Shown: positions 1 through 57,239 of the stretch, piece by piece | Layout: each line of letters opens with the position of its first letter | Numbering within the stretch: the stretch's first letter is position 1 | Virus record (IMG/VR): IMGVR_UViG_3300039159_000385 | Location: 1-57,239 of that record | Source of the DNA: a virus | Taxonomy: Duplodnaviria; Caudoviricetes | Strand: one strand, 5' to 3' | DNA: 57,239 nucleotides | The notes under the pieces: model-generated | The model's input: only the letters and a program-made list of their open reading frames with translations | The model's database searches: none | What the model was told of the DNA's origin: nothing | Program-made: the position numbers and the translations under genes

Positions 1-22
1 GCTCGGTGCCGGGGCCGGGGCC

Positions 23-92
23 GGTGCTCGGTGCTCGGTGCTCGGTGCTCGGTGCTCGGTGCTCGGTGCTCGGTGCTCGGTGCTCGGTGCTC
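23..92 (+). repeat. Tandem heptamer array (GGTGCTC) x10, flanked by GGGGCC units
   Basis: Directly visible. The same unit forms the last bases of the window (57208-57239), suggesting a circular junction. Confidence 0.95.
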
Positions 93-134
93 GGCACCGG
101 GGCCGGTGCTCGGGGCCGGGGCCGGAACGAACGA

Positions 135-161
135 CGGCCGGAGCTCGTGAGGCTCCGGCCG
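135..161 (-). terminator. Intrinsic terminator-like hairpin after the 185..505 gene
   Basis: CGGCCGGAGC-7nt-GCTCCGGCCG perfect 10-bp stem followed on the minus strand by TCGTTCGTT. Near-identical copy at 1252-1280. Confidence 0.7.
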
Positions 162-184
162 CTCGCCCACTGTCACGGCCGGGG

Positions 185-505
185 CTACAACCACTCGGCC
201 AACGCTATCCGGCCGAGACAGTCCCGGCCGAGTCCCGGCACGCTCAACCCGGCCGGTGGCATGTCATTCACGGCCGCCCACACTGTCGGTACGTCGGCCA
301 CGTATTCCACATATAAATAGTCGCCGAGTTGGGGGGCTACTACACAATACTTCGCCCACGCCGGGGCCGGGGCTACGCAATCGTCTCCGACATCGGCCAC
401 ACGGACGGCCAGAGTCTCGCCGGAGTTGCTGCCATACGTGCCGTCGGTCTGCCACTTCGGGCTATCGCCGATCATACTCTCCCGGCCCACGCTCCCGGCC
501 TTCAT
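185..505 (-). CDS. Hypothetical early protein
   Basis: 106-aa ORF whose start overlaps the upstream stop (ATGA), followed by a terminator hairpin. Confidence 0.65.
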   Translation of the reverse strand: MKAGSVGRESMIGDSPKWQTDGTYGSNSGETLAVRVADVGDDCVAPAPAWAKYCVVAPQLGDYLYVEYVADVPTVWAAVNDMPPAGLSVPGLGRDCLGRIALAEWL

Positions 506-993
506 AGGATCCCCATTTCAGCAAACGAACGGTAATTCCCACCACCTACCACTACGTGGTCATTTACCGGGATCCCAAGCAATAGCCCGGCCGCTACCAG
601 TTGGGTAGTTACCGCCCGATCCTGTCGGCTCGGATCCGGGTCGCCGCTCGGGTGATTATGGGCCACCACAATAGCCGCCGAACCGACTAGGATCGCTGGC
701 CGGAACACTTCCCTAGGATGGACTAGGCTTGAATCAAGTATCCCACGAGTGATTAGCACCGGATCCCCGATTACCCTGTGCTGTACGTCCAACATTATCA
801 CGTAGAAAGCTTCGGCCGTTTCGGACATAAAAATACCCGCCATGATAGCCGCCGCATCCCGTGGCCCACGCACACTCTGCCGCTCGGTCGTGGCCGGTGA
901 TCCTTCCCGGACTAGCCGCAGGGTACCGGCCGCCGGAGTCTGTAGCACGTACAGCTCGGCCAGCCCACGGACTACCTTTCTCGACATTGCCAT
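502..993 (-). CDS. RadC-like JAB/MPN domain protein (UPF0758)
   Basis: Motifs E..(EAFYVIMLD), VHPREVF, HNHPSGDPDPSRQD and DHVVVG. Start set at the ATG after a GGGGGA RBS. Confidence 0.93.
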   Translation of the reverse strand: MAMSRKVVRGLAELYVLQTPAAGTLRLVREGSPATTERQSVRGPRDAAAIMAGIFMSETAEAFYVIMLDVQHRVIGDPVLITRGILDSSLVHPREVFRPAILVGSAAIVVAHNHPSGDPDPSRQDRAVTTQLVAAGLLLGIPVNDHVVVGGGNYRSFAEMGIL

Positions 994-1051
994 TCTATCC
1001 CCCGGCCGCCGCCGGTTAGTGTGAACCTGAACAACCATTACTAGTGTATAC

Positions 1052-1080
1052 ATATTACTACAGTAACCGACGGGCCGCAA
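1052..1080 (-). promoter_or_regulatory. Sigma70-type early promoter
   Basis: TTGCGG-17nt-TAATAT in an AT-rich island upstream of the RadC-like gene. Confidence 0.8.
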
Positions 1081-1083
1081 GTA

Positions 1084-1241
1084 GGGGCCGGGGCCGGGGC
1101 TCGGGGCCGGGGCCGATTGTCTAAGTGTCTACCAGGGTATGCACCGGCAAGGATTGCCTAGTCCGTGGCCGGGGCTCGGGGCCGGGGCTCGGGGCCGGGG
1201 CTCGGGGCCGGGGCCGGGGCCGGGGGCCGCAGCTCGGGGCC
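1084..1241 (+). repeat. Intergenic GGGGCC/GGGGCTC array with a ~60-bp unique core, paralogous to 5166-5301
   Basis: The core gggccgattgtc..accaggg..gca.cggcaag..ttgcctagtccgtggccggggctcggggccgggg occurs at both loci. Confidence 0.9.
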
Positions 1242-1251
1242 GGAACGGACA

Positions 1252-1280
1252 ACGGCCGGAGCTTGTGAGGCTCCGGCCGT
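1252..1280 (-). terminator. Intrinsic terminator-like hairpin after the 1306..2298 gene
   Basis: ACGGCCGGAGC-7nt-GCTCCGGCCGT followed on the minus strand by TGTCCGTT. Confidence 0.7.
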
Positions 1281-1305
1281 CCGTTCCGTTCCGCTCCGCT
1301 CCGGG

Positions 1306-2298
1306 CTACTTCACCACCGACAGCCCCCCACGCTTGCCGGTAGGCTTGGGCTTGCCGGTACGCTTGGCCGTCTCGGCCGCCGGGGCCGGGGCCGTCCCAA
1401 CAATCAAATAATCGTCACTCGGGGCCGGGGCCGTCTCGGCCGTCATCCCGTCCGGCCGCACATTGGCCGCCCAACCGTCAAGTACCGCCACCGCCCGCAA
1501 CCGCACAACGTCACCGGCCGCCATTACACCGACAGACACGTTATCGGTCCACGCCCCGGCACACTCCGCAGGCCAGAGGGCCGCCGGGTCCCCGAGTATT
1601 TCCCCGTAGCCGTCCGGCAGACACACCACTACGCCACCGGCCCCGATATAGACCCGAAAAAACTCGGACGGGTCGTCGTGCTCCGCCGATACGTCCGGGG
1701 CATCCAGCACGATACCCGTACGGTACACCGGACGGCCGCCGGGCCGGGCCTTGAGCATGGAAAGCACCGCCCCACGCACCCGGCCGTCAGAATCGCTGTC
1801 ACCGGCCACAGTCACGAGGTCCAGACGATCGGCCAGCCCCAGCACGGCCGCCGTCCGCTCGGTCCACCGCCGGAGCTTGGCCGGATCGTGCAAAATTGCC
1901 CGTTCGCTCGGACGAAACAGGGAGACACGAGCCGCCCACCGGCCAGTTGAAATGACACCATCGCCCACGAGGGACACAAAGTTACCGGGAGTGCCACGGA
2001 GCATATCGGGATTGAGCAACCGGCCGCCGGACTGTGCCGGATCGCCGGGCCGGTGACTGTCCGGGCTCGCCGTCCCGGCCGCCGGATCGGTCCAGACGGC
2101 CGGGAGCAATCCGGCCGCCGTATTCACATTACCGGGCTTGAGCACATGCACCAGGGTCCCGGCCGGGAGAGATGTCCCGTAGTCGGGGAAATGTACCCGG
2201 CCGGGGCCGGAGACGGCCGCCGGGGCCGTCTCGGCCACCGGCACGGCCGCCGTTCCCTTCCCTTTCCCTTTCGCTTTCGTCGTCGTCGTCATCGTCAC
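1306..2298 (-). CDS. Hypothetical early protein with Lys-rich termini
   Basis: 330-aa ORF with a GGGGG RBS. No family recognised. Confidence 0.75.
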   Translation of the reverse strand: MTMTTTTKAKGKGKGTAAVPVAETAPAAVSGPGRVHFPDYGTSLPAGTLVHVLKPGNVNTAAGLLPAVWTDPAAGTASPDSHRPGDPAQSGGRLLNPDMLRGTPGNFVSLVGDGVISTGRWAARVSLFRPSERAILHDPAKLRRWTERTAAVLGLADRLDLVTVAGDSDSDGRVRGAVLSMLKARPGGRPVYRTGIVLDAPDVSAEHDDPSEFFRVYIGAGGVVVCLPDGYGEILGDPAALWPAECAGAWTDNVSVGVMAAGDVVRLRAVAVLDGWAANVRPDGMTAETAPAPSDDYLIVGTAPAPAAETAKRTGKPKPTGKRGGLSVVK

Positions 2299-2306
2299 AA
2301 CCCCCG

Positions 2307-3221
2307 TTAGAACGTAAGGAACGAACCGGCCGGGCTATCCGTCCGGGTAACCGTCACGGCCGCCGCCGCTTCCAACCGCACCGCTCGCACCGCTCGCACC
2401 GCTTGAGCCGCCGTAGCTTGTCCGTCCGCTACCGCTACCACCGCCCGAGTTACTGACGCCTCCCTAGCCGCCCGGAGCACTTGGGCCGCCGTTCCTTTCC
2501 CGTTCACCGTCGCATATATTGCCCTGTCTAGGGCCGCCTCTCGGGCCGCCTGTAGGGCCGCCGCCGCCGCCGCCGCCGCTACCGGGTGAATCGGGATCCC
2601 TACACCCGTCCGCTCGCCTTTCGCATTGCCTACCCGACTCGCCGGGGCCGCCGGGGCCGTCTCGGCCGATTCCAGAGACGTTAGAAACGCCTCGGCCCGC
2701 TCGGCTAAATCGGACGCCGCCGCCGCCGTCACTTTGCTTCGAGCTTTCGCCACACTCCCCCCCGTTGTTGTTGGTTGTGCCCACGGGTCCCGGCCGTCGG
2801 CCGTCCGGCCCATCCGTTCGTACACCGCCGCCCACTTGTCCCGCCGGGCTTCCCGATCGTCGGCCCGCCGTGCTTCGTCGGCCCGTATTGCTTTGATGTC
2901 CACCGTAGCCACTCCCCAACGGGATTGCCCGTAGTCGGTCGCTAGGTCACGGTGGTCGTACCACCAATTCCAACCGGTATTGTCCAGAGTGTACCGGCCT
3001 TCCGGCCAGTCTGCCGGGTCGTGTGGGCAATCGGTACCGGGGCCGGTGACGGGCTCCGGCAATAGCTCTAGGCCGTAGCCGTTCCCGTTATGCCGCACGT
3101 CGTCGGCCCGTAGCCGAGTACACTGTGCCGCTAGGGCCGTGGCCCGTTGAGCCGTCGTATACTCGTTGAGCCGCTTGATCGTCAAGCCCTGATTGTATCG
3201 GCTTGTGGTGTGCTTCTTCAC
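2307..3221 (-). CDS. Hypothetical early protein, Ala-rich helical C-terminus
   Basis: Long ORF with a GTG start overlapping the upstream TGA (GTGA coupling). Confidence 0.7.
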   Translation of the reverse strand: MKKHTTSRYNQGLTIKRLNEYTTAQRATALAAQCTRLRADDVRHNGNGYGLELLPEPVTGPGTDCPHDPADWPEGRYTLDNTGWNWWYDHRDLATDYGQSRWGVATVDIKAIRADEARRADDREARRDKWAAVYERMGRTADGRDPWAQPTTTGGSVAKARSKVTAAAASDLAERAEAFLTSLESAETAPAAPASRVGNAKGERTGVGIPIHPVAAAAAAAALQAAREAALDRAIYATVNGKGTAAQVLRAAREASVTRAVVAVADGQATAAQAVRAVRAVRLEAAAAVTVTRTDSPAGSFLTF

Positions 3222-3712
3222 GACACACCACCGGCCGCCGGGGCCGTCTCGGGTAGGGGCTCGGGGACTACCACATAGTCGGGCCGGTACTCCACCGCAG
3301 TGTCCCGCAGTAGGGAAAGCACGGCCGCCACCGTCGCCCAATTAACGCCGTATATCTTACGGCCCGCCTCGGTCGTCAAGCCGAACACCGACGCCACCGC
3401 TAGGCACGCCGCCTCACGGCTACCGCACAGTAGGACGCCCGGCAGATAGGGAGCCGACACTATCCAAGCAACCCACGCCGGGAGCCCGCTACTACCAACC
3501 CACCAACTAGCCGATAGGCCGCCCACGGGCACGGCCGTTAGTACCGGATCCGCACTGTGACACACGATATTGGAATATCGGCCGCTCGCCTTGAGCACGC
3601 CCGGCAAGTCTCGGAACGCACACGCTAGGACGGCCGAACCGCCACGGATCGGGACGCTACCGGGCACGGCCGGGGCTCCGGGCACGGCCGCCGCTTCGGC
3701 CGCCGTCAACAT
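3218..3712 (-). CDS. Hypothetical early protein
   Basis: 164-aa ORF overlapping both neighbours. Confidence 0.65.
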   Translation of the reverse strand: MLTAAEAAAVPGAPAVPGSVPIRGGSAVLACAFRDLPGVLKASGRYSNIVCHSADPVLTAVPVGGLSASWWVGSSGLPAWVAWIVSAPYLPGVLLCGSREAACLAVASVFGLTTEAGRKIYGVNWATVAAVLSLLRDTAVEYRPDYVVVPEPLPETAPAAGGVS

Positions 3713-4242
3713 GGCACACCACCGGCCGCCGGGGCCACGATCGCCGGGGTGACGACCGATACCCGGCCGTAGCCGCAGGACGCCACGGCCGCCGCTATCG
3801 CCTCACGGGCCGGAAGGTCCACGGCCGCCCGCTCACGTACGCCCCAGAACGTCGCCACGAGGATTCGGGCCGATTGAACCGACTCAGTCCAATAGTCGCC
3901 CGCTTCCATCGTCATTACGTACACTCCGGCCCACGCCGGGATAGTCGGCACATATGCCGGGTTCCCGTACCAACTCGGCACGATCGACACCGGCACGCCG
4001 ACCGCTACCGCACGGCCGCCGCTGTCGGCCACGAGCCCGTGGGCTTCCATCATCCGGAGCTCTAGGCCACGATCGCACAGACCGACGGCCGGTGAAAGCT
4101 CACGCCCGGCCGCCACGAGGGCCGGGACGGCCGCCACCGTCACCGGGGCCGCCGACGGTGGCAGTAGGATACGACGGCCGCCCGTCGGCAGTACCGGAAT
4201 GATCCGGAGCCGTGGCCCCATCGTCAACCGCCGGGCCGTCAC
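3706..4242 (-). CDS. Hypothetical early protein
   Basis: GTG start coupled to the upstream stop, after GAGGTG. Confidence 0.6.
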   Translation of the reverse strand: MTARRLTMGPRLRIIPVLPTGGRRILLPPSAAPVTVAAVPALVAAGRELSPAVGLCDRGLELRMMEAHGLVADSGGRAVAVGVPVSIVPSWYGNPAYVPTIPAWAGVYVMTMEAGDYWTESVQSARILVATFWGVRERAAVDLPAREAIAAAVASCGYGRVSVVTPAIVAPAAGGVPC

Positions 4243-4676
4243 GACAACACCTCGCACCGGCCGCCGGTAAGAGCCGCCACGATCGCCGCATATCCGGCCA
4301 GCTCGGCCGCCGTCGGGAACGTCTCGGCCTCGCCTTCCAATGCCCACACGAACGCCAACGCCATCCGGGCCGTCGCTTCGGTATTGCACACGAGTACACC
4401 GGCACCGTCTAGCCACTCGGCACCGGCCGCCCACGACGCCCACGACGGCATGGGCCGGAGCCCGGTAACATCCCATTTCTGGCCGTCGGCATCATAGGCC
4501 GACATAGCCCACGCCGAGCCGAGAGACGACACGTTCCCCAGAGCCGCACCGAAGTAGGCCCAACACTCCGGCCGGGCTTCCTCGGCCGTGGCCGTACCCA
4601 CAACACGGGCCACTTTCGCCACCGCCGCCACCGCCGCCGCCGTCATTACCATTTCCAACCGCTTGACTTGTCCCAT
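4239..4676 (-). CDS. Hypothetical early protein
   Basis: ATG after GGGGGGA, first gene downstream of promoter 4730-4758. Confidence 0.7.
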   Translation of the reverse strand: MGQVKRLEMVMTAAAVAAVAKVARVVGTATAEEARPECWAYFGAALGNVSSLGSAWAMSAYDADGQKWDVTGLRPMPSWASWAAGAEWLDGAGVLVCNTEATARMALAFVWALEGEAETFPTAAELAGYAAIVAALTGGRCEVLS

Positions 4677-4729
4677 AATCCCCCCCGGAGTGTATGAAAG
4701 CAACCGCCAACCACCAACCACATGTAAAC

Positions 4730-4758
4730 ATATTACTACACTACCGCACTGCCGTCAA
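4730..4758 (-). promoter_or_regulatory. Sigma70-type early promoter
   Basis: TTGACG-17nt-TAATAT, near consensus. Confidence 0.85.
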
Positions 4759-4770
4759 TCCCCCCAGACG

Positions 4771-5082
4771 TTACCCGGCCCGACACTGTGGGCAATCGTC
4801 GCACACCCCGGAGCCGTCTAGCACGCCGATTGCTCCGTGATCGCACACGCCGACGCACCCGGCTACCGGGGCCGGGGCCGCCACCGGGGCCGGACTACGC
4901 CGGACGCCGACTATAGTACGCCGACGCCCGGCCGATCGCTTTTCCGGTACCGGCACCACTTCGGCCCGATAGGGCCACCACCGGGCCAGATCATCGACAT
5001 ACCCGGCCGCTTCACGTTCCGTGTCCCAAGGTCCGACCCGGCACGGGCCACCACTACACACCGTCACCACATAGTAAAGCAT
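4771..5082 (-). CDS. Hypothetical Cys-containing early protein
   Basis: 103 aa with a G-rich RBS and C-terminal CxxxC/CxxCxxC, downstream of promoter 5131-5159. Confidence 0.6.
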   Translation of the reverse strand: MLYYVVTVCSGGPCRVGPWDTEREAAGYVDDLARWWPYRAEVVPVPEKRSAGRRRTIVGVRRSPAPVAAPAPVAGCVGVCDHGAIGVLDGSGVCDDCPQCRAG

Positions 5083-5130
5083 GCCCCCCCCGTCCGCCGA
5101 CGGTTAGTGTTCTCGTTGTCCTCTGTTTAC

Positions 5131-5159
5131 AGACTACTACACCAGGCCACGGAACGCAA
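5131..5159 (-). promoter_or_regulatory. Sigma70-type early promoter
   Basis: TTGCGT-17nt-TAGTCT. The leader ACACTAACCG.CGGCGG.CGGGGG is shared with the RadC-like gene leader. Confidence 0.75.
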
Positions 5160-5165
5160 CGGCTC

Positions 5166-5301
5166 TGGGGCCGGGCCGATTGTCCAGGATGTTTACCAGG
5201 GTTGCATCCGGCAAGCTTTGCCTAGTCCGTGGCCGGGGCTCGGGGCCGGGGCCGGGGCTCGTGGCCGTGGCTCGGGGCCGGGGCTCGGGGCCGTCTCGGC
5301 C
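5166..5301 (+). repeat. GGGGCC/GGGGCTC array plus core, paralog of 1084-1241
   Basis: Directly visible. Marks the edge of the GCG-free block. Confidence 0.9.
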
Positions 5302-5334
5302 AGGCCCGCGCGCCGCGCGCGGAACCGGCGGCCG

Positions 5335-6030
5335 CTAGGTCGGTGTCGGCTCGGCCAGGACGCGCGCCCAGTCCCAAAACGGGCGGCCGCGCGCCACTTC
5401 GACGAGCGGGGTTGGGTACACGACCCGGTGCGGCGTTTCGATGCGCCGATCCGCGCCCCGGCCCACGATCGCGCGCACCGGCACCTCGCCGTCGTCGTTC
5501 AGGAGCGGCGCTAACGCGCTCGCGGGCACCAGGAACACCGCGCCCCCATCCGGCGCACATTCGGCGTCCAGGCAGGCGTAGAACGCGATCCCGCCCGCCT
5601 CCGCAAACCGCATGAGCCAGGCGACTTGCCCCCGGATCCGGCGCACATCGCGCGGGTCGAGCTTCGGCGCGAGGACCGCGATGGTCAGCTTTGCTTTGCC
5701 GGTCGCGCCCTTGGCGTCGAACGCGACCGGCCGGGGCGCGCCGTTGACGGTCACGAGGCCGACAAAATCGGGCGCGAGCCCGCTTGCCGTCCGGCGCACG
5801 TTGCCAGGCGCGCCGCGCGTCTTTTCGCCCACGGCCGCGATCACCGCCACCCCGTCATGCGCGTAGCGCAGATGGGCGCGGTTCAGCATTTCCTCGAACC
5901 GCTCGCCGGAGCGGTTGCCGGCCGCTCCGGCGTGGGCGCGGGTCGCCGTATCAAGCGCACTCACCGGGTCGAGCGCGTACCCACCGCGCGGCAGCGCCAC
6001 CGTTGCCGGCATAAAGCGTCGAGCGCGCAT
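5335..6030 (-). CDS. RecU-like Holliday junction resolvase (PD-(D/E)xK nuclease)
   Basis: NRSGERFEEMLN..HLRY, PDFVG and VAFDAKG match the RecU pattern. Confidence 0.75.
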   Translation of the reverse strand: MRARRFMPATVALPRGGYALDPVSALDTATRAHAGAAGNRSGERFEEMLNRAHLRYAHDGVAVIAAVGEKTRGAPGNVRRTASGLAPDFVGLVTVNGAPRPVAFDAKGATGKAKLTIAVLAPKLDPRDVRRIRGQVAWLMRFAEAGGIAFYACLDAECAPDGGAVFLVPASALAPLLNDDGEVPVRAIVGRGADRRIETPHRVVYPTPLVEVARGRPFWDWARVLAEPTPT

Positions 6031-6545
6031 TACAGCGCCCGGTCCGTGTGACTCTGTGCCCGCAGCCGTTCTAGGGCGCGCCGTTCCTGCCGCGACGGCT
6101 GGCGCATGATCGGCGACAGCGGCGCCGGCGGTTCGTCCTCCGCAAACGCGTTCACCGCATCCACGAGCCGCAGGACGGCGAGCGGCCCGTGGGCGGCCGT
6201 CGAACCGGGCAGCGGTTCGATCACGCCGTGCTCGTTCACGCACCGCGCGTCGAGAAAGGCGTCGAGCGCCGTGGAGCCCACGAGGAGCAGCGTTTCGACC
6301 ATCGCCACCGGGAGCGTGCAGTTCGCGGCGCCCTCCAGGAGTGCGTTTTGCGACTGCGCCAGCAGTGCCCGGAGCCCCAACCGGGCGACGTTCAGGCTGT
6401 GCAGCCGTCGCTCCATCTGCTCGGCATCGCCGCCGGGCGGGGCGTCCAGGTCGGGCAGCCGGGTCGCGGGGTGCGCATTTGGTGCACCGGGTGCGGGCGG
6501 GGCCGACACGGGGCGGCCGTTGGCGTCAAAGATCATCGGGTACAC
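6030..6545 (-). CDS. Hypothetical protein
   Basis: 171-aa ORF between the initiator and resolvase, TAATG-coupled to the next gene. Confidence 0.65.
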   Translation of the reverse strand: MYPMIFDANGRPVSAPPAPGAPNAHPATRLPDLDAPPGGDAEQMERRLHSLNVARLGLRALLAQSQNALLEGAANCTLPVAMVETLLLVGSTALDAFLDARCVNEHGVIEPLPGSTAAHGPLAVLRLVDAVNAFAEDEPPAPLSPIMRQPSRQERRALERLRAQSHTDRAL

Positions 6546-7512
6546 CGGGGGTTTTTGAGAGTGAAAACGTCGCCAAAATGGCGGCGACCGAGTGCAGCGG
6601 CGCGCCGACCCGTTGCGGGGTGCGAGGTGCGGTATTCCAGCCCAAATCAGCGGGCGGATCGTGGATTTGGTGCTTTTGGTGCACCGGGTGCGGCGTGTGC
6701 AACTCGCGCGGCATCGGCAACGGGCGGAGGTCGAGCCGTGGCCCGGTGCCCAGGCCGGGGCCGGGGCTGTGGCTGTGGCTGGTGGTCGATTCCCCGAGCG
6801 GCGGCGGTGGCGGCGCGCCCTGCAAGGGAGCGCAAGCCGGCGACGACGACGCGGACTTTTCCTCCCGCGCGTTGTTGCTGTTGCGGTTTGAGATCGCTAA
6901 TCCGCTTGGGCTCTTTGGCAGAGCCCGCGTATTAGCTCTTTCTGTTGTTCTTACTTCTGTAGGCGCTATGCGAGATGCTATGGAAGATGCTTTGCGACTT
7001 GCATTGCGAGTTGCTTTGGAAGTTGCATTGCGAGTTGCAATGCTCGGCGGTTCGGGCGGGTTCTCGCCTCCCTCATGTGATACGTGAAGGGGTTCAGGTA
7101 ATGTGTCACGTGAGGCGTCACCGGCCGCGTCGTCAGGCGTGTCTGCGGTGTCATTTCCCCTATGACGCGCCGCCCAACCGCCCGACGCGCCGGCGGCCGC
7201 CCGCTTCTCGTATTTCTCGCGCTGTTCGTCGAACACCTCGGCCACCAGCGCCGCGATGCGCCACCCTGCTTCGGTCACCGGGAAGTGCAATAAAACGCTC
7301 TCGCGATGGCGCTTCCACCGGGCCGAACCGAGTCCACTTACGACGCTCAAAATCGCGTCAGAATCCGGCAAATGTGCGGGATAGTCGGCGTTCACCCAGG
7401 CCGCGCAGTTGAGCCGCATAATCGCGGCTTGCGCTTCCGGGGCGAGCAGTTGCGTCCGTTCCAGCCATTCGGTCGGGTTGAACGGCCACCAGGTCAGTAA
7501 GGGCCGTTTCAC
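6526..7512 (-). CDS. DUF1376/YdaU-family phage replication initiator
   Basis: N-terminus WWPFNPTEWL..TQLL..EAQAAIMRL...W....LPD.D..L....G....W, then KRAAAG..GG, with an internal iteron-like array. Confidence 0.8.
   Translation of the reverse strand: MKRPLLTWWPFNPTEWLERTQLLAPEAQAAIMRLNCAAWVNADYPAHLPDSDAILSVVSGLGSARWKRHRESVLLHFPVTEAGWRIAALVAEVFDEQREKYEKRAAAGASGGWAARHRGNDTADTPDDAAGDASRDTLPEPLHVSHEGGENPPEPPSIATRNATSKATRNASRKASSIASRIAPTEVRTTERANTRALPKSPSGLAISNRNSNNAREEKSASSSPACAPLQGAPPPPPLGESTTSHSHSPGPGLGTGPRLDLRPLPMPRELHTPHPVHQKHQIHDPPADLGWNTAPRTPQRVGAPLHSVAAILATFSLSKTPGVPDDL
6929..7039. promoter_or_regulatory. Putative replication origin: six 12-bp iterons plus an AT-rich tract
   Basis: 6968-7039 ATGCGAGATGCT/ATGGAAGATGCT/TTGCGACTTGCA/TTGCGAGTTGCT/TTGGAAGTTGCA/TTGCGAGTTGCA next to T-rich 6929-6961, inside the initiator gene as in lambda O. 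Confidence 0.7.
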
Positions 7513-8045
7513 GGCGCGTCCCCCGTATCCGGGCTGTTGTGTGGGCTGTCCGAGGATTCGGCCAGCGAGGACTCGTACCACGCGCGCAAGGCCACGCGCT
7601 GCGCCAGCGTCGGCGGCTGGGTGGGGTCGTTCAGGACGATCACCACGCGTTTGCCGGCCTTCGGCGCCGGCGTAGCTCCTTTCACGCCCGCCATTGTGAT
7701 GCGGTTGTACACGCGCGCGCCCACCGTCAGGGGCTCCGGCTCCGGAAGCGGGTCGAGCGTGGACCCGCCCGGCGGCAACTCGATGGTAATGCGCGGCCGC
7801 TCCTTCTGTCCCGCCAGATATTCCCGCGTCGCTTTCATGCGGATCGCGTGTGTGCGCTTCTTCGACGGCGGCCGGACGCCCACCCGCTGACACGCCGTAC
7901 ACACCGACGAAATCGCAACGCCGCACGCGGCCGCCGCTTGCGTCGCCGTCGCCCCGGCCGCCACCATGCCCACCGCCCGGTCGATCACCTCCGGCGCGAT
8001 CTGGCGCCTCGGTCCTCGGGGCGGGTGGTTCTCCCCGGTCGTCAC
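7509..8045 (-). CDS. HTH DNA-binding protein
   Basis: RAVGMVAAGATATQAAAACGVAISSV helix-turn-helix pattern. Confidence 0.65.
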   Translation of the reverse strand: MTTGENHPPRGPRRQIAPEVIDRAVGMVAAGATATQAAAACGVAISSVCTACQRVGVRPPSKKRTHAIRMKATREYLAGQKERPRITIELPPGGSTLDPLPEPEPLTVGARVYNRITMAGVKGATPAPKAGKRVVIVLNDPTQPPTLAQRVALRAWYESSLAESSDSPHNSPDTGDAP

Positions 8046-9233: not shown

Positions 9234-9478
9234 GGTGCCCCGCGCGGGTCCGCGTGCCGGTCAGGCGCGAGCACATGCGCTGCCATCTGCGTGTACCACG
9301 CGGCCTTCGCCGCATCTTGCGCCGCGTCGTCCTTCGCGCCCGTGCGCCATGCGTATTTGATGGCGTTGCCTCGGCAAAACGCGACGAACCCGGCCTGTCC
9401 GAGCGCGGACCGAATGGCGTCAATGCACTCGATTGACCCCTGCGTATAATGGGCAGGGCGGTTGATGGCGTCGCTCAT
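9230..9478 (-). CDS. DUF3310 (SaV/T7 gp1.7-like) protein
   Basis: INRPAHYTQGSIECIDAI...FCRGNAIKYAWR.G.K....D..KA.WY. Confidence 0.9.
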   Translation of the reverse strand: MSDAINRPAHYTQGSIECIDAIRSALGQAGFVAFCRGNAIKYAWRTGAKDDAAQDAAKAAWYTQMAAHVLAPDRHADPRGAP

Positions 9479-10932
9479 GGCGTCGGTCCGAGTGCCGCTA
9501 TAAAGCGGCGTCCGATCCACTCCGTGACGACCGACCCGACGCCATTGCCGCACAGCCTGTACCGTGCCGTATCGCTGAGGGCGTATGGGGTGCCGTCCTC
9601 GCGGGTGCCGGTCGCCGTGTGCCCATCCGCCCACGACATCAGTCTTTCGCACTCGCGCGGCGTCAGGCGACGCGGGCGGGGGTAGAGTGCCAAGGTAGTG
9701 TTGCCCACGACGATCGGATGCGACGAACCGACGCCGGGTGTCCGCAACGCCGGAACCTCGATGCTGCACTCCGCCATGCTGCCGCCCGCACGGCCACGAA
9801 GCGCCACCACGATCGGTGTCCCGCGTCCCGTGCCGTCCTCGCTCGCGTCGCACCCCTCGCTCGTCAGCGCGTGCGTGATGTCGCCGGTGGCGCTGACGAC
9901 GCCCATCCCCGAAGAGGTGACGCCCAAGCACGGCGTTGCCTCGACTGCGCTAACCGGGTCTTGTGTCAGGTGAAACGCGATGGCCAGGACCACCGGCGTA
10001 TTGTCGTAGCTGTCGCCCGCGCCCTTATCTCTGCCACCAACGACCAGCGTCTGCACGATCGCCTGCTGCGGGACGACATGCGGCGCCGCATCGCCCGCCT
10101 TCCCGACACTTGCCGTCAGTGCCACCAGATCAGATGGCGCACCGACAGTCTTGTTGTCTCTCGTGTAGTATCGCGGCTCAAACGCGAAGACCGCCTGCTG
10201 CGCCCCAGCCTGCAACGGGACCACCTGGATGCCGCCACTCAACTCGAAATCCGTGCCTAATCCGCCGCCACCTTGAGTGCGTGCGCTAAGGCTGCCGGTA
10301 ACAGCTTCCCGCGACTGCTCGCGCGGCGAAGGATGCCCGCACAGGCTTTCGGCGAGAGCCAGTACTTCGGCGGGATCGACGCCGCCGGTTCGAGCAGCGA
10401 CGACAAAGACGCGACGCCGCCGCTGGGGCGGTCCGAAGTGCTGCAAGTCGAGCACACGCCACGCGGCCACTCCGGTCGCGCCAGCAACCACACCCGCGCT
10501 TGTCCATTGTTTGGCAGGGGCAGCGACGGGGGATCCCACGAGGGCTGATAGGATGGCGGCGAAATCTTCGCCTTTGCTGGATGACAGGGCTCCACTGACA
10601 TTCTCCCAAAGAAAGTAAGGCGCTTGGGTCTCTTCCCATGCGCGAATCTGTTCGTAAAACAATCCCGATCGTGCGCCCGCGAGCCCGGCGCGCTTCCCAG
10701 CGACGCTCAGGTCTTGGCAGGGCGAGCCGCCCGCGACGAGACCCACGCGGCCGGCGTACTGCGTCCAATCCACTTTCGCGACATCACCGTGCAGCGGCAC
10801 ATCCGGCCAGTGGTGCCGGAGCACGGCGCGGGCGTGCGGCTCTATCTCCGCATGGGCGACGGCGGTCATGCCTGCGGATTCGAGCCCGATGCTCAGGCCG
10901 CCAGCGCCCGCAAACAATTCGATGTATCTCAC
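9475..10932 (-). CDS. DNA (cytosine-5)-methyltransferase
   Basis: ELFAGAGG (motif I), GGSPCQD (IV), ENV (VI), PQRRRRVF (VIII), RRLTPRECERL (IX), GNGV (X). Confidence 0.96.
   Translation of the reverse strand: MRYIELFAGAGGLSIGLESAGMTAVAHAEIEPHARAVLRHHWPDVPLHGDVAKVDWTQYAGRVGLVAGGSPCQDLSVAGKRAGLAGARSGLFYEQIRAWEETQAPYFLWENVSGALSSSKGEDFAAILSALVGSPVAAPAKQWTSAGVVAGATGVAAWRVLDLQHFGPPQRRRRVFVVAARTGGVDPAEVLALAESLCGHPSPREQSREAVTGSLSARTQGGGGLGTDFELSGGIQVVPLQAGAQQAVFAFEPRYYTRDNKTVGAPSDLVALTASVGKAGDAAPHVVPQQAIVQTLVVGGRDKGAGDSYDNTPVVLAIAFHLTQDPVSAVEATPCLGVTSSGMGVVSATGDITHALTSEGCDASEDGTGRGTPIVVALRGRAGGSMAECSIEVPALRTPGVGSSHPIVVGNTTLALYPRPRRLTPRECERLMSWADGHTATGTREDGTPYALSDTARYRLCGNGVGSVVTEWIGRRFIAALGPTP
10257..10601 (-). 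CDS. Nested alternative-frame ORF resembling the beta polypeptide of EcoHK31I-type MTases
   Basis: SLSSLLE....PPKYWLSPKACAGILRRA..RGK.LP..L..AL in a shifted frame inside the MTase. True start uncertain. Confidence 0.6.
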   Translation of the reverse strand: MSVEPCHPAKAKISPPSYQPSWDPPSLPLPNNGQARVWLLARPEWPRGVCSTCSTSDRPSGGVASLSSLLEPAASIPPKYWLSPKACAGILRRASSRGKLLPAALAHALKVAAD

Positions 10933-11207
10933 GGCGTCGCCTCGTTGTCAGCGGTGGTTGCCTGCCGCATCAACGCAAACACATCATCACGGATCGGGGA
11001 GCAATAGACCGTCTCTCCGGGCCCGTTGAACGCCTCGCACGCGCAGACCGGCCCGCACGGTGTCACGCGCTTGGTCTCGACGCATACGCCCGATCCCTCG
11101 GCGGCTTCTTGCAGCCACCAGCCGTCGATGTCGCCACGCTCCCCGCCGTGCCACTGCGTCAAGACGGCGAGGGCGAACGATTGTAGTGCGATCTGTGCGT
11201 CGGTCAT
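10929..11207 (-). CDS. Hypothetical protein
   Basis: ATG after GGGGGG, Cys cluster, coupled to neighbours. Confidence 0.65.
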   Translation of the reverse strand: MTDAQIALQSFALAVLTQWHGGERGDIDGWWLQEAAEGSGVCVETKRVTPCGPVCACEAFNGPGETVYCSPIRDDVFALMRQATTADNEATP

Positions 11208-11536
11208 AGTCCGCCCCCCGCTTCCGCCCGTGCGGCGGCAAGGAATACCCGAGCACCGTCTCCCGCGACGGTCAGGTAGTGCGCTCGCACCGTGCCGCCG
11301 AAGGGGTCCACCGGGTCGGGCTGGCTGAGGTACAGCGCAAACGCCATCAGCTCCAACCACGCAGCCGGCGGGTCCTCGCAATCGGCTAGCGTGATGGCGA
11401 TCGACGGCACGTGCGGGGCGTCTGTACTGAACATCGTGTCAAATCGTTCCGGTGTTTCTAACTCGTCAACGAATCCGTATACACCGCCGTCGTTGTCAAT
11501 CACGCATCGCTGCGCCTTCACGCGCTTACTCATCAC
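11204..11536 (-). CDS. Hypothetical protein
   Basis: 110 aa with a GGAGG RBS. Confidence 0.65.
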   Translation of the reverse strand: MMSKRVKAQRCVIDNDGGVYGFVDELETPERFDTMFSTDAPHVPSIAITLADCEDPPAAWLELMAFALYLSQPDPVDPFGGTVRAHYLTVAGDGARVFLAAARAEAGGGL

Positions 11537-12056
11537 ACCTCCGACTATCGGTTATTGGTGTCGCCGCCGGCCCATCGCACCACCGGCCACGCCCGGCGTT
11601 GTGCTGGCTCTCGCGCGACCGACACCGCTCCACCTCACCCCAGGTGCCGATCACGCGGCCACTGAGCGTCAGATTGTCACCGACACGCCGCACACGCTCG
11701 ATTACGCGCCCGTGCATCAGCACATCGTGCCAGGTGACACGCGGCGGCCCGATCGGGTGCTGACTTTGTACGCCGGCGTTTTGGCACCACAGCGACGCTT
11801 GGCCTTTACTGACGCCGACCGAGCGCGCCACCTCCGTGATCGCTTCCCCCTGCGCCACTCGATCCACAACCGCCTCGCGGAACGCACACGTGTACCGCAC
11901 ATAGCGGTGCGGCGGTGCCACGCCCGCCTCGCGTCCCCACCGCCGTACCGTGTCGCTATCGAGCGCCAACGACTGCGCGACCGTCGCCACCGGCGTGCCC
12001 TCACGCAGCGCGCCCACGACGCGCTGCTGCAACGCGCGCAACCAGGGCGTCGTCAT
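11526..12056 (-). CDS. Tandem HTH protein
   Basis: Two HTH units: GTPVATVAQSLALDSDTVRRW and GEAITEVARSVGVSKGQASLW. Confidence 0.7.
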   Translation of the reverse strand: MTTPWLRALQQRVVGALREGTPVATVAQSLALDSDTVRRWGREAGVAPPHRYVRYTCAFREAVVDRVAQGEAITEVARSVGVSKGQASLWCQNAGVQSQHPIGPPRVTWHDVLMHGRVIERVRRVGDNLTLSGRVIGTWGEVERCRSRESQHNAGRGRWCDGPAATPITDSRRCDE

Positions 12057-12397
12057 ATTCCCTTCTCGCCGGGCCGGGCCGGCCGGTACAGCACGACGCA
12101 CCCAATGCGCTGCAACGCGTACACCATGCATCGCAGCGGCAACTGCACCACGCCGCACACAAGCGCCAGCCCTAACGACACCACGACCGGGCAAACGATA
12201 AGTACGGTCAGCACCGAATCGACGACGTACCCCCCGCGAGCGCGCACGCGCCGCGCCACCTTGCCGCGCCGGTCTAGGTCGTCCTCACTCGCGGCCATCT
12301 GGTAATCGTGCATTTTGCTTCGCGCGTCCACCACGGCAACACGCACCGCTTCAATCACCGAAAACAAATCGTACCTTCTTCTGTTGAACGCGATCAT
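12053..12397 (-). CDS. Hypothetical membrane protein
   Basis: C-terminal hydrophobic segment, coupled ORF. Confidence 0.55.
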   Translation of the reverse strand: MIAFNRRRYDLFSVIEAVRVAVVDARSKMHDYQMAASEDDLDRRGKVARRVRARGGYVVDSVLTVLIVCPVVVSLGLALVCGVVQLPLRCMVYALQRIGCVVLYRPARPGEKGI

Positions 12398-12942: not shown

Positions 12943-13775
12943 ACGTCCCGTCCCACCGCACACATGCGGCGCACCAGATCCTGCGCGGACGCTTGCATGG
13001 TGACGACTGTCGGGGCGAGTGCAGTCAGTGCCGCAGCCCATGCCGCAGCCAGTGCCGCAGCCAGTGCCGCATCCGATGCCGCATCCGATGCCGCATCCGA
13101 TGCCGCAGCCGATGCCGCAGCCCATGCCGCAGCCAGTGCCGCATCCGATGCCGCCTCCGCTGCCGCATCCGATGCCGCCTCCGATGCGGCATCGGAGGCC
13201 GCAGCCCATGCCGCATCCGATGCCGCCTCCCATGCCGCAGCCAGTGCCGCAGCCCGTGCCGCATCCGATGCCGGGGCCCGTACCGCGCGCCCGTCCGCAG
13301 CCAGTGCCGCCTCCGATGCCGCAGCCGATGCCGCACCCGCTGCCGCATCCCGAACGACCTGCGACTGTAAAAGCGCGGCCGAGTCGGTGAGTGGTGGCAG
13401 TGCCGCCAGCGCGTCCGCGTGCGTGACGAGTGCAGGCGTCAGGCGCAGAAATGCGGGCAGGTGTGTACGACACAGCCAGTCCAGCGCCAGAAACCCACGC
13501 GCCTGAGTGTCTGCGTCCGTTGTCCGCGTCCCGATCACGCCCGGCAGGAGCGGGCCAATCAACCGCGTGCGGCTCGCTTCGTCTGGGAGCACGTCGTTCC
13601 AGTAGCGCAAAAATGCGTTAATGCTCCGGCAACTGCACGCGGGGTCATCGCTCCACGGCTCGCCTGCCACGTACGCGACCAGCTGCATCGCACACATCGC
13701 GGAGTGGTCGCCGTGCTCTCCTTGCGCCAGCGGCGTTGTCGTCAGCGTCGTGATTTGTTCAGGGGTAAGTGTCAT
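12939..13775 (-). CDS. Phage protein with AA(S/W/L)(D/A) low-complexity repeats
   Basis: CAMQLVAYVAGEPWSDDPAC...WND N-domain followed by 12-bp periodic Ala-rich repeats. Confidence 0.75.
   Translation of the reverse strand: MTLTPEQITTLTTTPLAQGEHGDHSAMCAMQLVAYVAGEPWSDDPACSCRSINAFLRYWNDVLPDEASRTRLIGPLLPGVIGTRTTDADTQARGFLALDWLCRTHLPAFLRLTPALVTHADALAALPPLTDSAALLQSQVVRDAAAGAASAAASEAALAADGRAVRAPASDAARAAALAAAWEAASDAAWAAASDAASEAASDAAAEAASDAALAAAWAAASAAASDAASDAASDAALAAALAAAWAAALTALAPTVVTMQASAQDLVRRMCAVGRDV
13022..13350. repeat. Degenerate 12-bp coding tandem repeat (GCCGCATCCGAT-like)
   Basis: Directly visible. Encodes the AASD/AAWA/AALA units. Confidence 0.9.
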
Positions 13776-21024: not shown

Positions 21025-22281
21025 CTACTGCGGCATTGTGAACGTGGGCGGCCTCGGCACATGCCGCATCGTGAGCGTTGCCCGCTGCACCGACTGCACC
21101 GCGAGCGTCGGCGCCGTCTGATGGCCGGCCGTGAGCGCCGCCCGCTGCACCGACTGCACCGCGAGCGTCGGCGCCGTCTGATGGCCGGCCGTGAGCGCCG
21201 GGCTGGTCGGTTGCGCACGCAACAGCGGACGCAGCCAACCAGCACGCCCGATCGGCGCATCGGTGAGCGTGCCGGACGCTGACAGCGACAGCGCCGACGC
21301 CGCCGCGAGGGCCGCCGACGAGCCGCGCAGGAGCGCGGACGCGGTGACCGAGAGCGCAGCCACACCGGCCAGGGCCGCCGAAACGCCACTAAGGAGACCG
21401 ACACTGGTCAGGCTGAGCGTCGCCGCGCCGGCCAACGGCTTGAGTACCGTCAGCGCGCCGGCCGTTGTCACGCTGAGCGTCGCCGCACCGACGAGCGCGG
21501 CCGCCGCACCCGTCAGGGTGCCCGTGCCCGTCACGGCTAGGGTGGCGCCGCCCGACAGCGCCGCCGACGCACCGCGTAGGGTGCTGGTCGTCGTCACCGT
21601 AAGCGTCGCCGCGCCCGCCAACGGCTTCGCGACCGTCAGCGCACCGGCCGTTGTCACGCTGAGCGTCGCCGAGGCCGACAACCCGGCCGTCGCACCGGTC
21701 AGCGTCGCCGCTGTTGTCAGCGCGAGCGTCGCGACACCCGACAGGGCGGCCGTCGATCCGCGCAGGGTGCTGGTGGTGGTGACGGCCAACGGCGCCGCAC
21801 CGGCGAGTACGGCCGACACCCCGCGCAAGACCGCCGTCGTCGTCAGTTCGAGCGTCGCGGCCCCGGCCAGTGCGGGCGTTGACGAGCGGAGCACGCCGTC
21901 CGCCGTCACGCTCAGTGTCGCCGCGCCTGCCAGCGCCGCGCCGGGGACGATCAGCGACTCCTCGACTTCCATCGCGAGGTAATCGACCTCGATGCGGTTG
22001 GCGTCACCCCGCTTCGTCAGCGTGACGGTCAGCGCCGCTTCGTCAACAATCGCGCCGTACTCACCTGCCGTGAGCACAAACGAGTAATCGTCCCACGTTG
22101 TCGTCAGTGGCAGCGTGCGCGTTGCAATGACGGTTGCGCCTTCGCGCAGTTCGACCACGAGCTGCGCGTCGCCGAACGTGCCGCTTGACAGCGGCGCACT
22201 CGCGAGTGTTCCGTGCCATCCCCACTCAGTCGGGCGATGGCGAAGCGGGACGAACTCCGCGATAAACCCGAGCAACGACAC
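21025..22281 (-). CDS. Repeat-rich putative tail fibre/spike protein
   Basis: About 11 repeats of LAGAATL(S/A)VT(T/A).(G/S).L and a 60-bp tandem duplication at ~21070-21200. Confidence 0.65.
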   Translation of the reverse strand: MSLLGFIAEFVPLRHRPTEWGWHGTLASAPLSSGTFGDAQLVVELREGATVIATRTLPLTTTWDDYSFVLTAGEYGAIVDEAALTVTLTKRGDANRIEVDYLAMEVEESLIVPGAALAGAATLSVTADGVLRSSTPALAGAATLELTTTAVLRGVSAVLAGAAPLAVTTTSTLRGSTAALSGVATLALTTAATLTGATAGLSASATLSVTTAGALTVAKPLAGAATLTVTTTSTLRGASAALSGGATLAVTGTGTLTGAAAALVGAATLSVTTAGALTVLKPLAGAATLSLTSVGLLSGVSAALAGVAALSVTASALLRGSSAALAAASALSLSASGTLTDAPIGRAGWLRPLLRAQPTSPALTAGHQTAPTLAVQSVQRAALTAGHQTAPTLAVQSVQRATLTMRHVPRPPTFTMPQ

Positions 22282-34074: not shown

Positions 34075-34080
34075 CGACGA

Positions 34081-45956: not shown

Positions 45957-47042
45957 CTACGGGGCCACCATCTCGCGTGGCAACGACACCGCGCGACGCG
46001 TCGCGCGGCCGCCAATCGAAAACATCTTGAACGTGCCCGCCTCCGTCGCCTTCCATGCCGACGCGTGACTCACGTGCATCGTGATCGCGAAGCCGTGCGG
46101 CGTGTCGGCCGGCAGCCCCAGCACCGCCTTGACCACCGGCGTCACGATCAGCCCCTCGATCACCTGGCCGACGCGCACCGGCTCCATGACGCCCGCCGCG
46201 TTCGGGAGCTGCATGTGGACGATACCGCCCGTGCGATCGGTGCGCATGTAATCGTGCGCGGCCTTCGTGATGTCGGCCATGCGGATCACATCGCCCTGCC
46301 GATCGACCACAATGCGGCCCTGCGCATCGCTCACCACCGACGCCCACCCCATCGCCAACTGTTGCGCGTCGGCCTTGCGCACCTCGCCCGGCCCCATTCC
46401 GCGACGCAACGCCGCAATGATGTGCGGCGTGCGCTGCTCCAACTGCGCCGCGATCGTGAGCTGTTTCACAATCATCGCTTGCGCCTCCGGCGTGCGATCA
46501 TTCTGCATCAGCGTCGCGATCTGCTTGGCAAACACATCGCCGCCGATCGGGCCATGACGCTCCGGGCCGAACCGCAACGCGAAGTCGGGCAACGGCACGC
46601 GCTGCCACTGCACACTGGCGCCGTCATACGTGAGCGTGATGTGCGGCTTATACGTCTCGTCCGGGTAGCTGCTCACCGCGCCCGCTTTTTGCAGCGCCGC
46701 GTACCGCGCACCGAGTTGGTCGTCACGCACATGCAACACGACCGCGCCCTTCGAGCCGAGCGGCGCGATGTGCGTGAACTGCTCCGGGTAGATCGTGTGT
46801 CCCCACCGCACGGAGTGCTCGCCCCGTGTATCGTCGCGCGTCTCCGCGCGCACGCTCACCGTGGAATGACAGAGCGTGATGTGCGGATGCGCATCGCACG
46901 CAATGCCATGCTCCGCGCACCACGCGCGCAACTGTGCATGGTTCTCCAACGGGCGCCCGATGTAGCACCCGGCGTCTGCCTTCGTGAGCGAATCAATGCG
47001 CATCGTGTGTGCCGGTGTGAGTGTGTGAGTGCGCGCGTTCAT
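45957..47042 (-). CDS. Fusion of a 2H phosphoesterase (Acb1-like) and an XkdF-like prohead serine protease
   Basis: Two HxT motifs (PHITLCHS, YKPHITLTY) with LRFGPE, then GWASV...VVDRQGDVI....KAAHDYM...H...FSIGG. Confidence 0.8.
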   Translation of the reverse strand: MNARTHTLTPAHTMRIDSLTKADAGCYIGRPLENHAQLRAWCAEHGIACDAHPHITLCHSTVSVRAETRDDTRGEHSVRWGHTIYPEQFTHIAPLGSKGAVVLHVRDDQLGARYAALQKAGAVSSYPDETYKPHITLTYDGASVQWQRVPLPDFALRFGPERHGPIGGDVFAKQIATLMQNDRTPEAQAMIVKQLTIAAQLEQRTPHIIAALRRGMGPGEVRKADAQQLAMGWASVVSDAQGRIVVDRQGDVIRMADITKAAHDYMRTDRTGGIVHMQLPNAAGVMEPVRVGQVIEGLIVTPVVKAVLGLPADTPHGFAITMHVSHASAWKATEAGTFKMFSIGGRATRRAVSLPREMVAP

Positions 47043-57002: not shown

Positions 57003-57080
57003 CGCCCACCCCGGAAAAAAACGTGAATCCTGCGCTCGCCAGGCTCGCCGCCCGACGCAAGCCGTACGGCTTGTGTGTAC

Positions 57081-57109
57081 AATGTAATACATAAACCGAC
57101 CGAACGCAA
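57081..57109 (-). promoter_or_regulatory. Sigma70-type early promoter
   Basis: TTGCGT-17nt-TACATT. Confidence 0.75.
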
Positions 57110-57169
57110 TACCGGCCGTCGCCGGGGCCGTCGCCTATCGTCCAGGGTGTCGGCTACCGTCCAGACCGC

Positions 57170-57239
57170 CGGGGCCGGGGCCGGTGCTCGGGGCCGGTGC
57201 CGGGGCCGGTGCTCGGTGCTCGGTGCTCGGTGCTCGGTG
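57170..57239 (+). repeat. GGGGCC units and a (GGTGCTC)n array running off the end
   Basis: Directly visible. The last 8 nt (GCTCGGTG) equal the first 8 nt of the window. Confidence 0.95.

Follow-up and report, generated by a model that had tools for sequence, protein, structure and literature searches.

We analyzed the entire IMG/VR virus record IMGVR_UViG_3300039159_000385 (57,239 nt, hereafter the window), which comes from a tailed phage of a bacterium, and found a stretch from which the trinucleotide GCG is completely missing on one strand. On the + strand, the first GCG lies at 5308 and the last at 57032, with none in 1..5307 nor in 57035..57239. Joined as in a circular sequence, these two intervals form a block of 5512 nt (9.6% of the contig) that has 208 copies of the complement CGC on the same strand and not a single GCG. 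The exclusion is total, polar, frame-independent, sharply bounded, and coincident with a discrete module of genes, and it reflects selection on the nucleic-acid string, being neither a translational nor a mutational bias. We think that the selective agent acting on this first-exposed module was a nuclease that reads one strand, of RNA or of DNA, and we give this reading a probability of about 0.65-0.7. Within it, an RNase specific for CGC is slightly favored over a nickase of the template strand.

A preliminary description of this sequence had given the same limits for the GCG-free interval and had estimated that a hundred or more copies should be expected in it. Our counts agree on both points, as the expected number is 195.9 under a first-order Markov model (Markov-1) of the block and 314.4 at the rate found in the remaining genome. 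Simulating the block 300 times with Markov-1 gave 195.2 GCG on average (standard deviation 14.6) and never fewer than 144, and the Poisson probability of finding none is ~1e-85. The small piece 57035..57239, taken alone, has 0 GCG for 10.6 expected, and 8 CGC. Over the entire + strand of the window we counted 2950 GCG and 3472 CGC, of which 2950 and 3264, respectively, lie outside the block. The GCG-free gap amounts to 284 times the mean GCG spacing, while the next-largest gap of any trimer reaches 29 times (GGG, 33452-35330). The latter, 1.9 kb of + strand in the tail genes, was discarded as a second comparable exclusion because composition accounts for it: Markov-1 expects just 6.8 GGG, and GG is low in a proline-poor tail gene, the 1481-aa open reading frame (ORF) 34081-38526, which has just 22 Pro codons and whose length and position suggest a tape-measure protein.

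When ~663 kb (the window and the fetched loci) were scanned for intervals depleted in one trimer, the block alone passed the thresholds, which rejects the exclusion as a general trait of the relatives identified by their large terminase (TerL). The largest trimer gap in any fetched locus was 31 times the mean spacing; a GCG-free gap of that relative size, 818 nt long, occurs at 4097-4915 of an unrelated 183-kb metagenome contig (L029). The edges of the block are abrupt. Directly outside either side there are 40-60 GCG per kb, without gradient, which rules out a selection gradient away from one end, and both edges adjoin G-rich arrays (5227-5293, and 57168-57239 continued by 1-113), as had been remarked before. 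The opposite asymmetry is most pronounced at 6308-6807, where 33 GCG and 13 CGC in 500 nt give the highest ratio of the genome; a degenerate copy of the G-rich array lies inside this interval (6736-6788).

Since all the 75 ORFs picked by a codon-usage model are on the - strand, the missing word is CGC in the mRNA or, equivalently, GCG on the template strand. Over the 4491 nt of coding strand in the block, CGC occurs 0/0/0 times in the three frames, for 63/99/93 expected from the other genes, and it is equally absent from the hairpins and leaders of the block. Hence, Arg is encoded by CGC in 0 of 110 codons (55% elsewhere), a codon ending in C precedes Ala in 0 of 250 cases (43% elsewhere), and a codon starting with C follows NCG in 0 of 259 cases (31% elsewhere). 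As all three frames are affected, selection must act on the nucleic-acid string and not on translation, and codon bias was rejected as the cause. The missing words are replaced by CGG and GGC (on the + strand, CCG 425 vs 243 scaled, and GCC 358 vs 227 scaled). A mutational bias of the deamination type was also rejected, since these synonymous replacements are raised whereas the deamination products GTG, GCA, and ACG are not. Palindrome avoidance alone is insufficient, as the preliminary description had argued from the frequent CGC: 103 GCG were expected outside GCGC/CGCG contexts, and the 208 CGC of the + strand were kept. Its statement that the exclusion covers intergenic DNA as well as all codon positions was also correct. 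More precisely, 299 nt of non-array spacer DNA outside the mRNAs, the limits of which are deduced from the sequence, have 0 GCG for 6.4 expected (P~0.002) and 5 CGC for 6.2 expected.

Other words are avoided in the same stretch. GCCGGC is absent from the block (26.3 expected), for 75 occurrences vs 109 expected in the rest of the genome. TCGA occurs 4 times in the block for 18 expected, and 302 times for 300 expected in the rest, and GCWGC occurs twice vs 26.7 scaled. Separate from these exclusions is a genome-wide near-absence of 6-bp palindromes, which is ordinary restriction-site avoidance: CCCGGG is missing (~42 expected), CCGCGG occurs once for 56 expected, and CTGCAG, CTCGAG, and GATATC have 0 occurrences across the whole genome. 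The count of AATT is 3 vs 34 in the rest of the genome.

Along the direction in which its genes are transcribed (5307 to 1, then 57239 to 57035), the block is made of repeated units that comprise a G-rich array, a conserved element, a promoter-like motif, genes, and a strong long hairpin (Table 1). Its upstream edge is marked by the GC-rich hairpin that directly follows the stop codon of a resolvase-like gene (5335-6243) and carries the first GCGs. The conserved element has no significant RNA fold and is thus more likely a DNA site. When up to 3 mismatches are allowed, the 36-nt promoter-like motif has three copies (0 expected), each of them on the - strand within the block, and the remaining genome has none. 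The arrays on the template strand upstream of the promoter-like motifs, made of GGGGCC, GGGGCT, or GCTCGGT units, could by their sequence form G-quadruplexes. The two long hairpins are homologous to each other, and the one that follows the 330-aa gene, which lacks a U tract, may act as a terminator or as a 3' stabilizer.

Table 1. Features of the GCG-free block and its edges, in the direction of transcription (z, z-score of the fold against shuffled sequences).
Positions	Strand	Feature	Remarks
1..5307		Main GCG-free part	No CGC on the - coding strand
57035..57239		Rest of the GCG-free block, across the contig ends	Part of the terminal array, divergent promoter-like copy, first ~35 nt of the leader of the next operon
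5308..5334	-	GC-rich hairpin	-27.2 kcal/mol, z -0.58, no better than shuffles
5227..5293	+ (template)	G-rich tandem array (GGGGCY)n	Upstream of the first promoter-like motif
5177..5227	-	Conserved element, copy 1 (~50-60 nt)	Between array and promoter-like motif; fold z -0.62
5124..5159	-	Promoter-like motif P1, TTGCGT-17-TAGTCT	
4771..5082	-	ORF, 103 aa	Cys-rich C-terminus, no family match
4723..4758	-	Promoter-like motif P2, TTGACG-17-TAATAT (4758-4730)	9/12 to the sigma-70 consensus
4239..4676	-	ORF, 145 aa (160 aa from an upstream GTG)	Acidic (isoelectric point 4.5), no family match
3706..4143	-	ORF, 145 aa	Start uncertain, no family match
3218..3712	-	ORF, 164 aa	No family match
2307..3221	-	ORF, 304 aa	Start uncertain, Ala-rich, weak codon score, no family match
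1306..2298	-	ORF, 330 aa	Sole homologue found in contig L008, 31% identity, same position
1236..1305	-	Long hairpin after the 330-aa gene	-45 kcal/mol, z -4.67, 0/200 shuffles as stable
1163..1243	+	G-rich tandem array (GGGGCC/GGGGCT)n	
1117..1163	-	Conserved element, copy 2	No significant fold
1084..1115	+	Short array (GGGGCC)5	
1045..1080	-	Promoter-like motif P3, TTGCGG-17-TAATAT	
502..993	-	RadC-like JAB domain protein	PF04002, HNHPSG motif
185..505	-	ORF, 106 aa	Acidic (isoelectric point 4.3), no family match
120..184	-	Long hairpin after the last block gene	-41.3 kcal/mol, z -4.54, 0/200 shuffles as stable
1..113	+	Tandem array (GCTCGGT)n/(GGGGCC)n	Same kind as 57168-57239; contig ends inside the array
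about 57075-57110		Divergent fourth copy of the promoter-like motif	Before the next operon

Only the RadC-like protein could be recognized among the eight ORFs of the block, the other seven having no family in Pfam, PHROGs, or PADLOC. Its match to PF04002 reaches 124.9 bits (gathering cut-off 22.1; E 2.2e-36) over profile positions 3-120 of 121, and the translation includes HNHPSGD, with the motif of the metal site. Protein-atlas searches with the ORFs 1306-2298 and 2307-3221 were uninformative, as were the searches of PDB sequences with the family-less ORFs, and RNA searches found neither Rfam families nor tRNAs.

Evidence from a relative comes from a metagenome contig, VFQN01000261.1:50660-72198 (L008), whose TerL is 68% identical to that of the window. 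Its genes are arranged as in the window: the C-terminal part of the resolvase-like protein (37% identity over 52 aa, E 3e-6), the homologue of the 330-aa ORF (31%), RadC (53%), further genes, terminase, portal, and capsid. In the corresponding module (122-2553), the coding strand has 29 CGC for 86.8 expected, and normal numbers of GCG (84 for 91.5 expected); its RadC unit has 5 CGC for 30.5 expected. The flanks of the module are normal (390 CGC for 395 expected, and 660 for 661), and relative to their rate the shortage has P~3e-28. Hence, polar depletion is a trait of the homologous module in a divergent lineage, where it has the same polarity and is only partial. L008 has no G-rich arrays; a short hairpin repeat precedes its promoter-like sites instead. 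Its 106,227-nt contig is about twice the 53,325-nt contig of another TerL relative and may be a two-copy assembly of a ~53-kb genome.

Closer to the window, we found parts of the block itself in two public DNA runs, in small shares and as short contigs only; no RNA run was listed among its holders. The contigs of one run (X1) match stretches of the block at 100% identity. The other (X2) has fragments of a closely similar variant; 28 of its differences are listed, none of which creates a GCG, and as 2.5 were expected by chance (P(0)=0.06), this is a weak test. A joint between 5291 and 1083 in X2 is most likely due to alignment between repeat arrays. Other searches gave little. Megablast of positions 1-8000 against isolated phages returned no match, the 330-aa ORF had no homologue other than itself among 5.8 billion proteins, neither its single sequence nor an alignment retrieved one from viral contigs, and scans of species genomes with portal and TerL revealed no related prophage. 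Scans of viral contigs with TerL gave only relatives with at most 41% identity, and four closer ones (P0003, P0005, P0006, and P0123) were present in Logan assemblies only, the cluster representatives being 65-68% identical to the TerL of the window. DNA patterns built from the conserved element and the promoter-like motif retrieved nothing related, the four AT-rich matches being due to chance.

The preliminary description had framed the block as a functional, selected, strand-specific exclusion in an early module. This framing holds, because self-contained transcription units with a promoter-like motif of their own coincide with the block and because a divergent relative shows the same polarity; the three models that came with it (early mRNAs resistant to an RNase, sites of one orientation in first-injected DNA, and a nicking or transfer signal) are not told apart. 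Such a total, frame-independent, and strand-specific ban implies an agent that reads one strand with ~3-nt specificity. Three targets would leave the same footprint: the mRNA (CGC), the single-stranded non-template strand (CGC), and the template strand of the duplex (GCG, e.g., for a nickase). The premise common to the RNA and DNA versions, namely that the block must work before the countermeasures of the phage exist, is probably right. We consider it somewhat better than an even bet that the block is the footprint of an undescribed one-strand trinucleotide nuclease, either a constitutive host defense or a phage-borne weapon for host shut-off, directed at CGC in RNA or at GCG in template DNA.

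In the version that we tentatively prefer, at odds still well short of even, the agent would be an endoribonuclease whose specificity has a CGC core, either an mRNA interferase like MazF or an enzyme of equivalent function. The block would be a self-contained immediate-early module, with three co-oriented transcription units under host-type promoters, encoding the RadC-JAB protein and seven family-less ORFs that probably serve counter-defense. Selection would have removed from it every target of the nuclease. With the RNase already active in the host when the DNA arrives, the CGC-free early mRNAs would stay intact and be translated, and one early product would neutralize the defense and allow the expression of the other ~68 CGC-rich genes. 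The early timing of the module is deduced from its features, and RNA as the target and a block product as the countermeasure are deduced as well.

There are precedents for the ingredients of this version. Most MazF motifs have 3-4 nt (PMC13107127). MazF-mt7, from a high-GC actinobacterium, cuts U^CGCU with relaxed flanks, cells that express MazF translate ACA-free transcripts, and mazEF and toxIN are active against phages (PMC5408214). The likeness with MazF-resistant, ACA-less mRNAs thus concerns the short RNA motif of 3-5 nt, the protection given by its full absence, and the precedent of a CGC core (PMC5408214, PMC13107127), the block mRNAs having 0 CGC in their coding sequence. The differences are that ACA-less mRNAs are engineered and that the exclusion reaches here into spacer DNA; in the literature searched, we found no report of a natural phage operon purged of a toxin motif. 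The first model of the preliminary description fits the 3-nt specificity, and also the partial depletion of L008, which makes sense for an RNase because the cost grows with the number of sites, as in mRNA cleavage.

Several observations weigh against the RNase and the early module. First, the exclusion from spacer and promoter DNA outside the inferred mRNAs is hard to explain and would require read-through transcription or a cause at the level of DNA. Second, the shortage of GCCGGC, TCGA, and GCWGC in the block is DNA-level selection on the very same stretch. Third, the next operon has a related promoter-like motif, yet its CGC content is normal from about position +35. Fourth, an RNase of pure CGC specificity was not found in the literature searched, where the only case was the U^CGCU of MazF-mt7. 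Finally, promoters, transcript ends, and timing are all read from the sequence, and just one of the four promoter-like sites (P2) is above the sigma-70 threshold of the tool; the word early in the preliminary description was likewise deduced and not observed.

The first alternative, which we regard as possible but rather doubtful, places the evasion at the level of DNA. The block would be the first-exposed segment, either a leading one as in T7 or one resembling the first-step-transfer region of T5, and the agent a strand-specific nuclease such as a frequent GCG nickase. Within the block, the + strand, which serves all its genes as template, would be uncuttable, so that no opposed nicks arise and the host RNA polymerase can read the early genes, and the rest of the genome would enter or be exposed only after block products have disarmed the defenses. 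Spacers and promoter regions are GCG-free besides the genes, and the ends are abrupt on both sides, as this alternative would have it. The size of the block, the arrays and GC-rich hairpin at its inner edge, and the co-orientation of all genes also fit. The contig ends in an array beside the block, ~6 kb upstream of the terminase genes, and if these are true ends the block lies at the one that would be packaged last. Finally, GCCGGC, TCGA, and GCWGC are absent or rare in the block alone and common elsewhere, which is the pattern of T5/BF23 and of Murciaviruses.

In T5/BF23, sites give restriction-modification, CRISPR, and Ssp systems a hold on the phage only when they lie in the first-step-transfer region, a terminal segment of ~8-10% of the T5 genome that has the pre-early genes (PMC10644984). 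The block has a similar share of its contig, its missing sites (GCCGGC and GCG) are likewise present elsewhere, and there are repeats at its inner edge. However, the sites missing in T5 are ordinary restriction-modification motifs of 4-13 bp, on both strands, and the available text reports no total polar trinucleotide exclusion for this phage (PMC10644984). The block also differs in its genes: none of its 8 ORFs is a homologue of the T5 pre-early proteins A1, A2, and Dmp (Pfam, PHROGs, PADLOC), and no homologues of known anti-restriction proteins were found for them.

The strand bias of EcoP15I sites in T7 is genome-wide. In T7/T3, the orientation of these asymmetric sites, and not their mere presence, sets the sensitivity (PMC10644984, citing Kruger 1995). 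Murciaviruses escape Type I restriction-modification when the motif is missing from their leading region, and the leading region of Autographiviridae is variable and often encodes anti-defense functions (PMC12455610). The resemblance is that the orientation or position of sites is decisive and that all genes are co-oriented. Yet the motifs of these phages have at least 5 bp, whereas here the word has 3 nt and abounds in both orientations outside the block. This leads us to reject the second model of the preliminary description in its literal form, i.e., Type III-like evasion by an asymmetric site of 5-6 bp kept in one orientation. Target depletion has also been considered in the leading regions of conjugative plasmids, where, in the available text, palindromes of 4-8 bp are not consistently depleted and nothing polar or trinucleotide-wide appears (PMC13478746).

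Strand-specific nickases with sites of 3-7 bp occur in phages and prophages, among them HNH nickases, and frequent cutters such as Nt.CviPII (/CCD) and Nt.CviQXI (R/AG) recognize an asymmetric word of ~3 nt and cleave a single strand, so that sites confined to one strand would leave the other whole (PMC3592412, PMC7019647). The difference is that they are encoded by viruses or prophages whose own DNA is shielded by cognate methylation, and none with GCG specificity is reported in the text available (PMC3592412, PMC7019647). The phage does encode a C5 DNA methyltransferase of 485 aa (9475-10932, - strand). Matches to Pfam and to solved structures (HhaI and HaeIII, residues 1-127) are confined to the catalytic half at its N-terminus. 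The long remainder, presumably the target-recognition part, could not be assigned and has no counterpart among solved structures; the specificity of the enzyme may be relevant to the exclusion. Among its neighbors, 10929-11381, 11204-11536, and 12053-12367 have no Pfam match and 11526-12056 matches helix-turn-helix families only, so that no nickase gene forming a pair like Nt.CviPII/M.CviPII was recognized there with Pfam. We know of no bacterial defense nickase with a 3-nt site. Moreover, this kind of terminase and Mu-type portal are often linked with headful packaging, which would leave no fixed leading end, and the 29 CGC left in the L008 module would make its depletion useless if a single site were lethal.

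An improbable alternative sees the block as a foreign cassette that was acquired recently, or as a compositional relic, whose signature was formed in another phage-host pair and has no present function. Its codon usage is indeed unlike that of the rest, with CTA for 25% of Leu codons vs 2%, a lower GC content at third codon positions, and low codon-model scores; CTAG is in excess (18 vs 1.5 scaled), and seven of the eight ORFs have no recognized family. However, the synteny on both sides and the polarity of the depletion are common to L008 even if the block proteins are only 31-53% identical, which implies that the module is old in the lineage. GCG would also have come back by mutation, yet there are 0 of ~200 in the block and none was created among the 28 listed differences of the X2 variant. 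Besides, a relic merely moves the question to the donor.

It is also quite improbable that the target is the non-template strand, exposed as single-stranded DNA in transcription bubbles or R-loops to a host nuclease or deaminase with a preference for CGC. The polarity would be the same as for an RNase, and the strongest promoter-like sites are in the block, but there is no footprint of deamination, the TGC and CGT equivalents being not enriched, and the spacers upstream of the promoter-like sites are GCG-free as well. To our knowledge, no enzyme has such a CGC context on single-stranded DNA.

Primases and some nickases recognize trinucleotides on one strand, and GCG on the + strand might be a start or stop signal for an enzyme of replication, priming, or packaging (a primase trinucleotide, a T5-like nick site, or a translocation stop). 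The nicking or first-step-transfer boundary of the preliminary description is of this kind, and it fits the avoidance of palindromes in the block and the precedent of T5-like virion DNA, which has nicks in one strand only (PMC10644984). Nevertheless, we find such a signal very improbable: no primase, polymerase, or HNH nuclease was recognized in the 59 ORFs scanned against Pfam, the 2950 GCG elsewhere are no rare positional signal, and forbidding priming over 5.5 kb brings no evident benefit. An artefact of sequencing or assembly (systematic miscalls where a motif is modified, or a chimeric join at the arrays) can practically be dismissed in spite of the flanking tandem arrays, where assemblers can misjoin, and of the C5 methyltransferase, since the RadC domain is intact, the independent X1 contigs are identical in the block, X2 holds a variant, and both junctions are syntenic in the independent contig L008.

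The record is classed as linear and 77% complete. Its two ends carry tandem arrays of one kind, with an overlap of ~72 nt at 93%, and TerL relatives sit on contigs of 53,325 and 106,227 nt, so that it is probably a complete genome broken in a repeat. Among its other genes we identified those of the large terminase, a Mu-type portal, the major capsid protein, an M15 peptidase, RecT, a DUF2303 protein, and a sigma-70 region-4 protein. The ORF 45957-47042 (- strand), situated between the genes for portal and capsid, combines an Acb1 anti-CBASS domain (residues 25-167, E 2.1e-14) with an XkdF-type serine protease (223-349, E 1.9e-8), and may be a counter-defense enzyme linked to the head-maturation protease. 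In-frame tandem repeats (26.6 copies of a 12-nt unit, and units of 60-63 and 186 nt) occur inside ORFs at 13029-13347 and 21070-21774, which are probably repetitive structural or surface proteins.

Hence, the block is best filed as an extreme form of target avoidance in the first-exposed module of a phage. The preliminary description knew of no comparable region, and we found no published description of a polar trinucleotide exclusion in a phage in the literature searched (a limited collection, without supplements): there, site avoidance in first-exposed phage DNA is known for ordinary restriction motifs only, and never as a complete polar ban of a trinucleotide. A ban this strict, with 0 of ~200-300 copies in every frame and partly kept in a relative, implies a strong selective agent that acts on 3 nt of one strand, and we know of no such defense or shut-off system for high-GC bacteria. 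If the block is indeed the footprint of an undescribed one-strand nuclease, a whole immediate-early module would have been recoded free of targets, a natural counterpart of the engineered ACA-less mRNAs and a new class of passive counter-defense. The footprint supplies the motif (CGC in RNA, GCG in template DNA) and the protected genes, which would make both the nuclease and its phage-encoded inhibitor directly findable. More generally, long intervals free of a k-mer on one strand may flag the first-exposed modules of phages and the specificities of the defenses they have met, which offers a general approach for genome mining.

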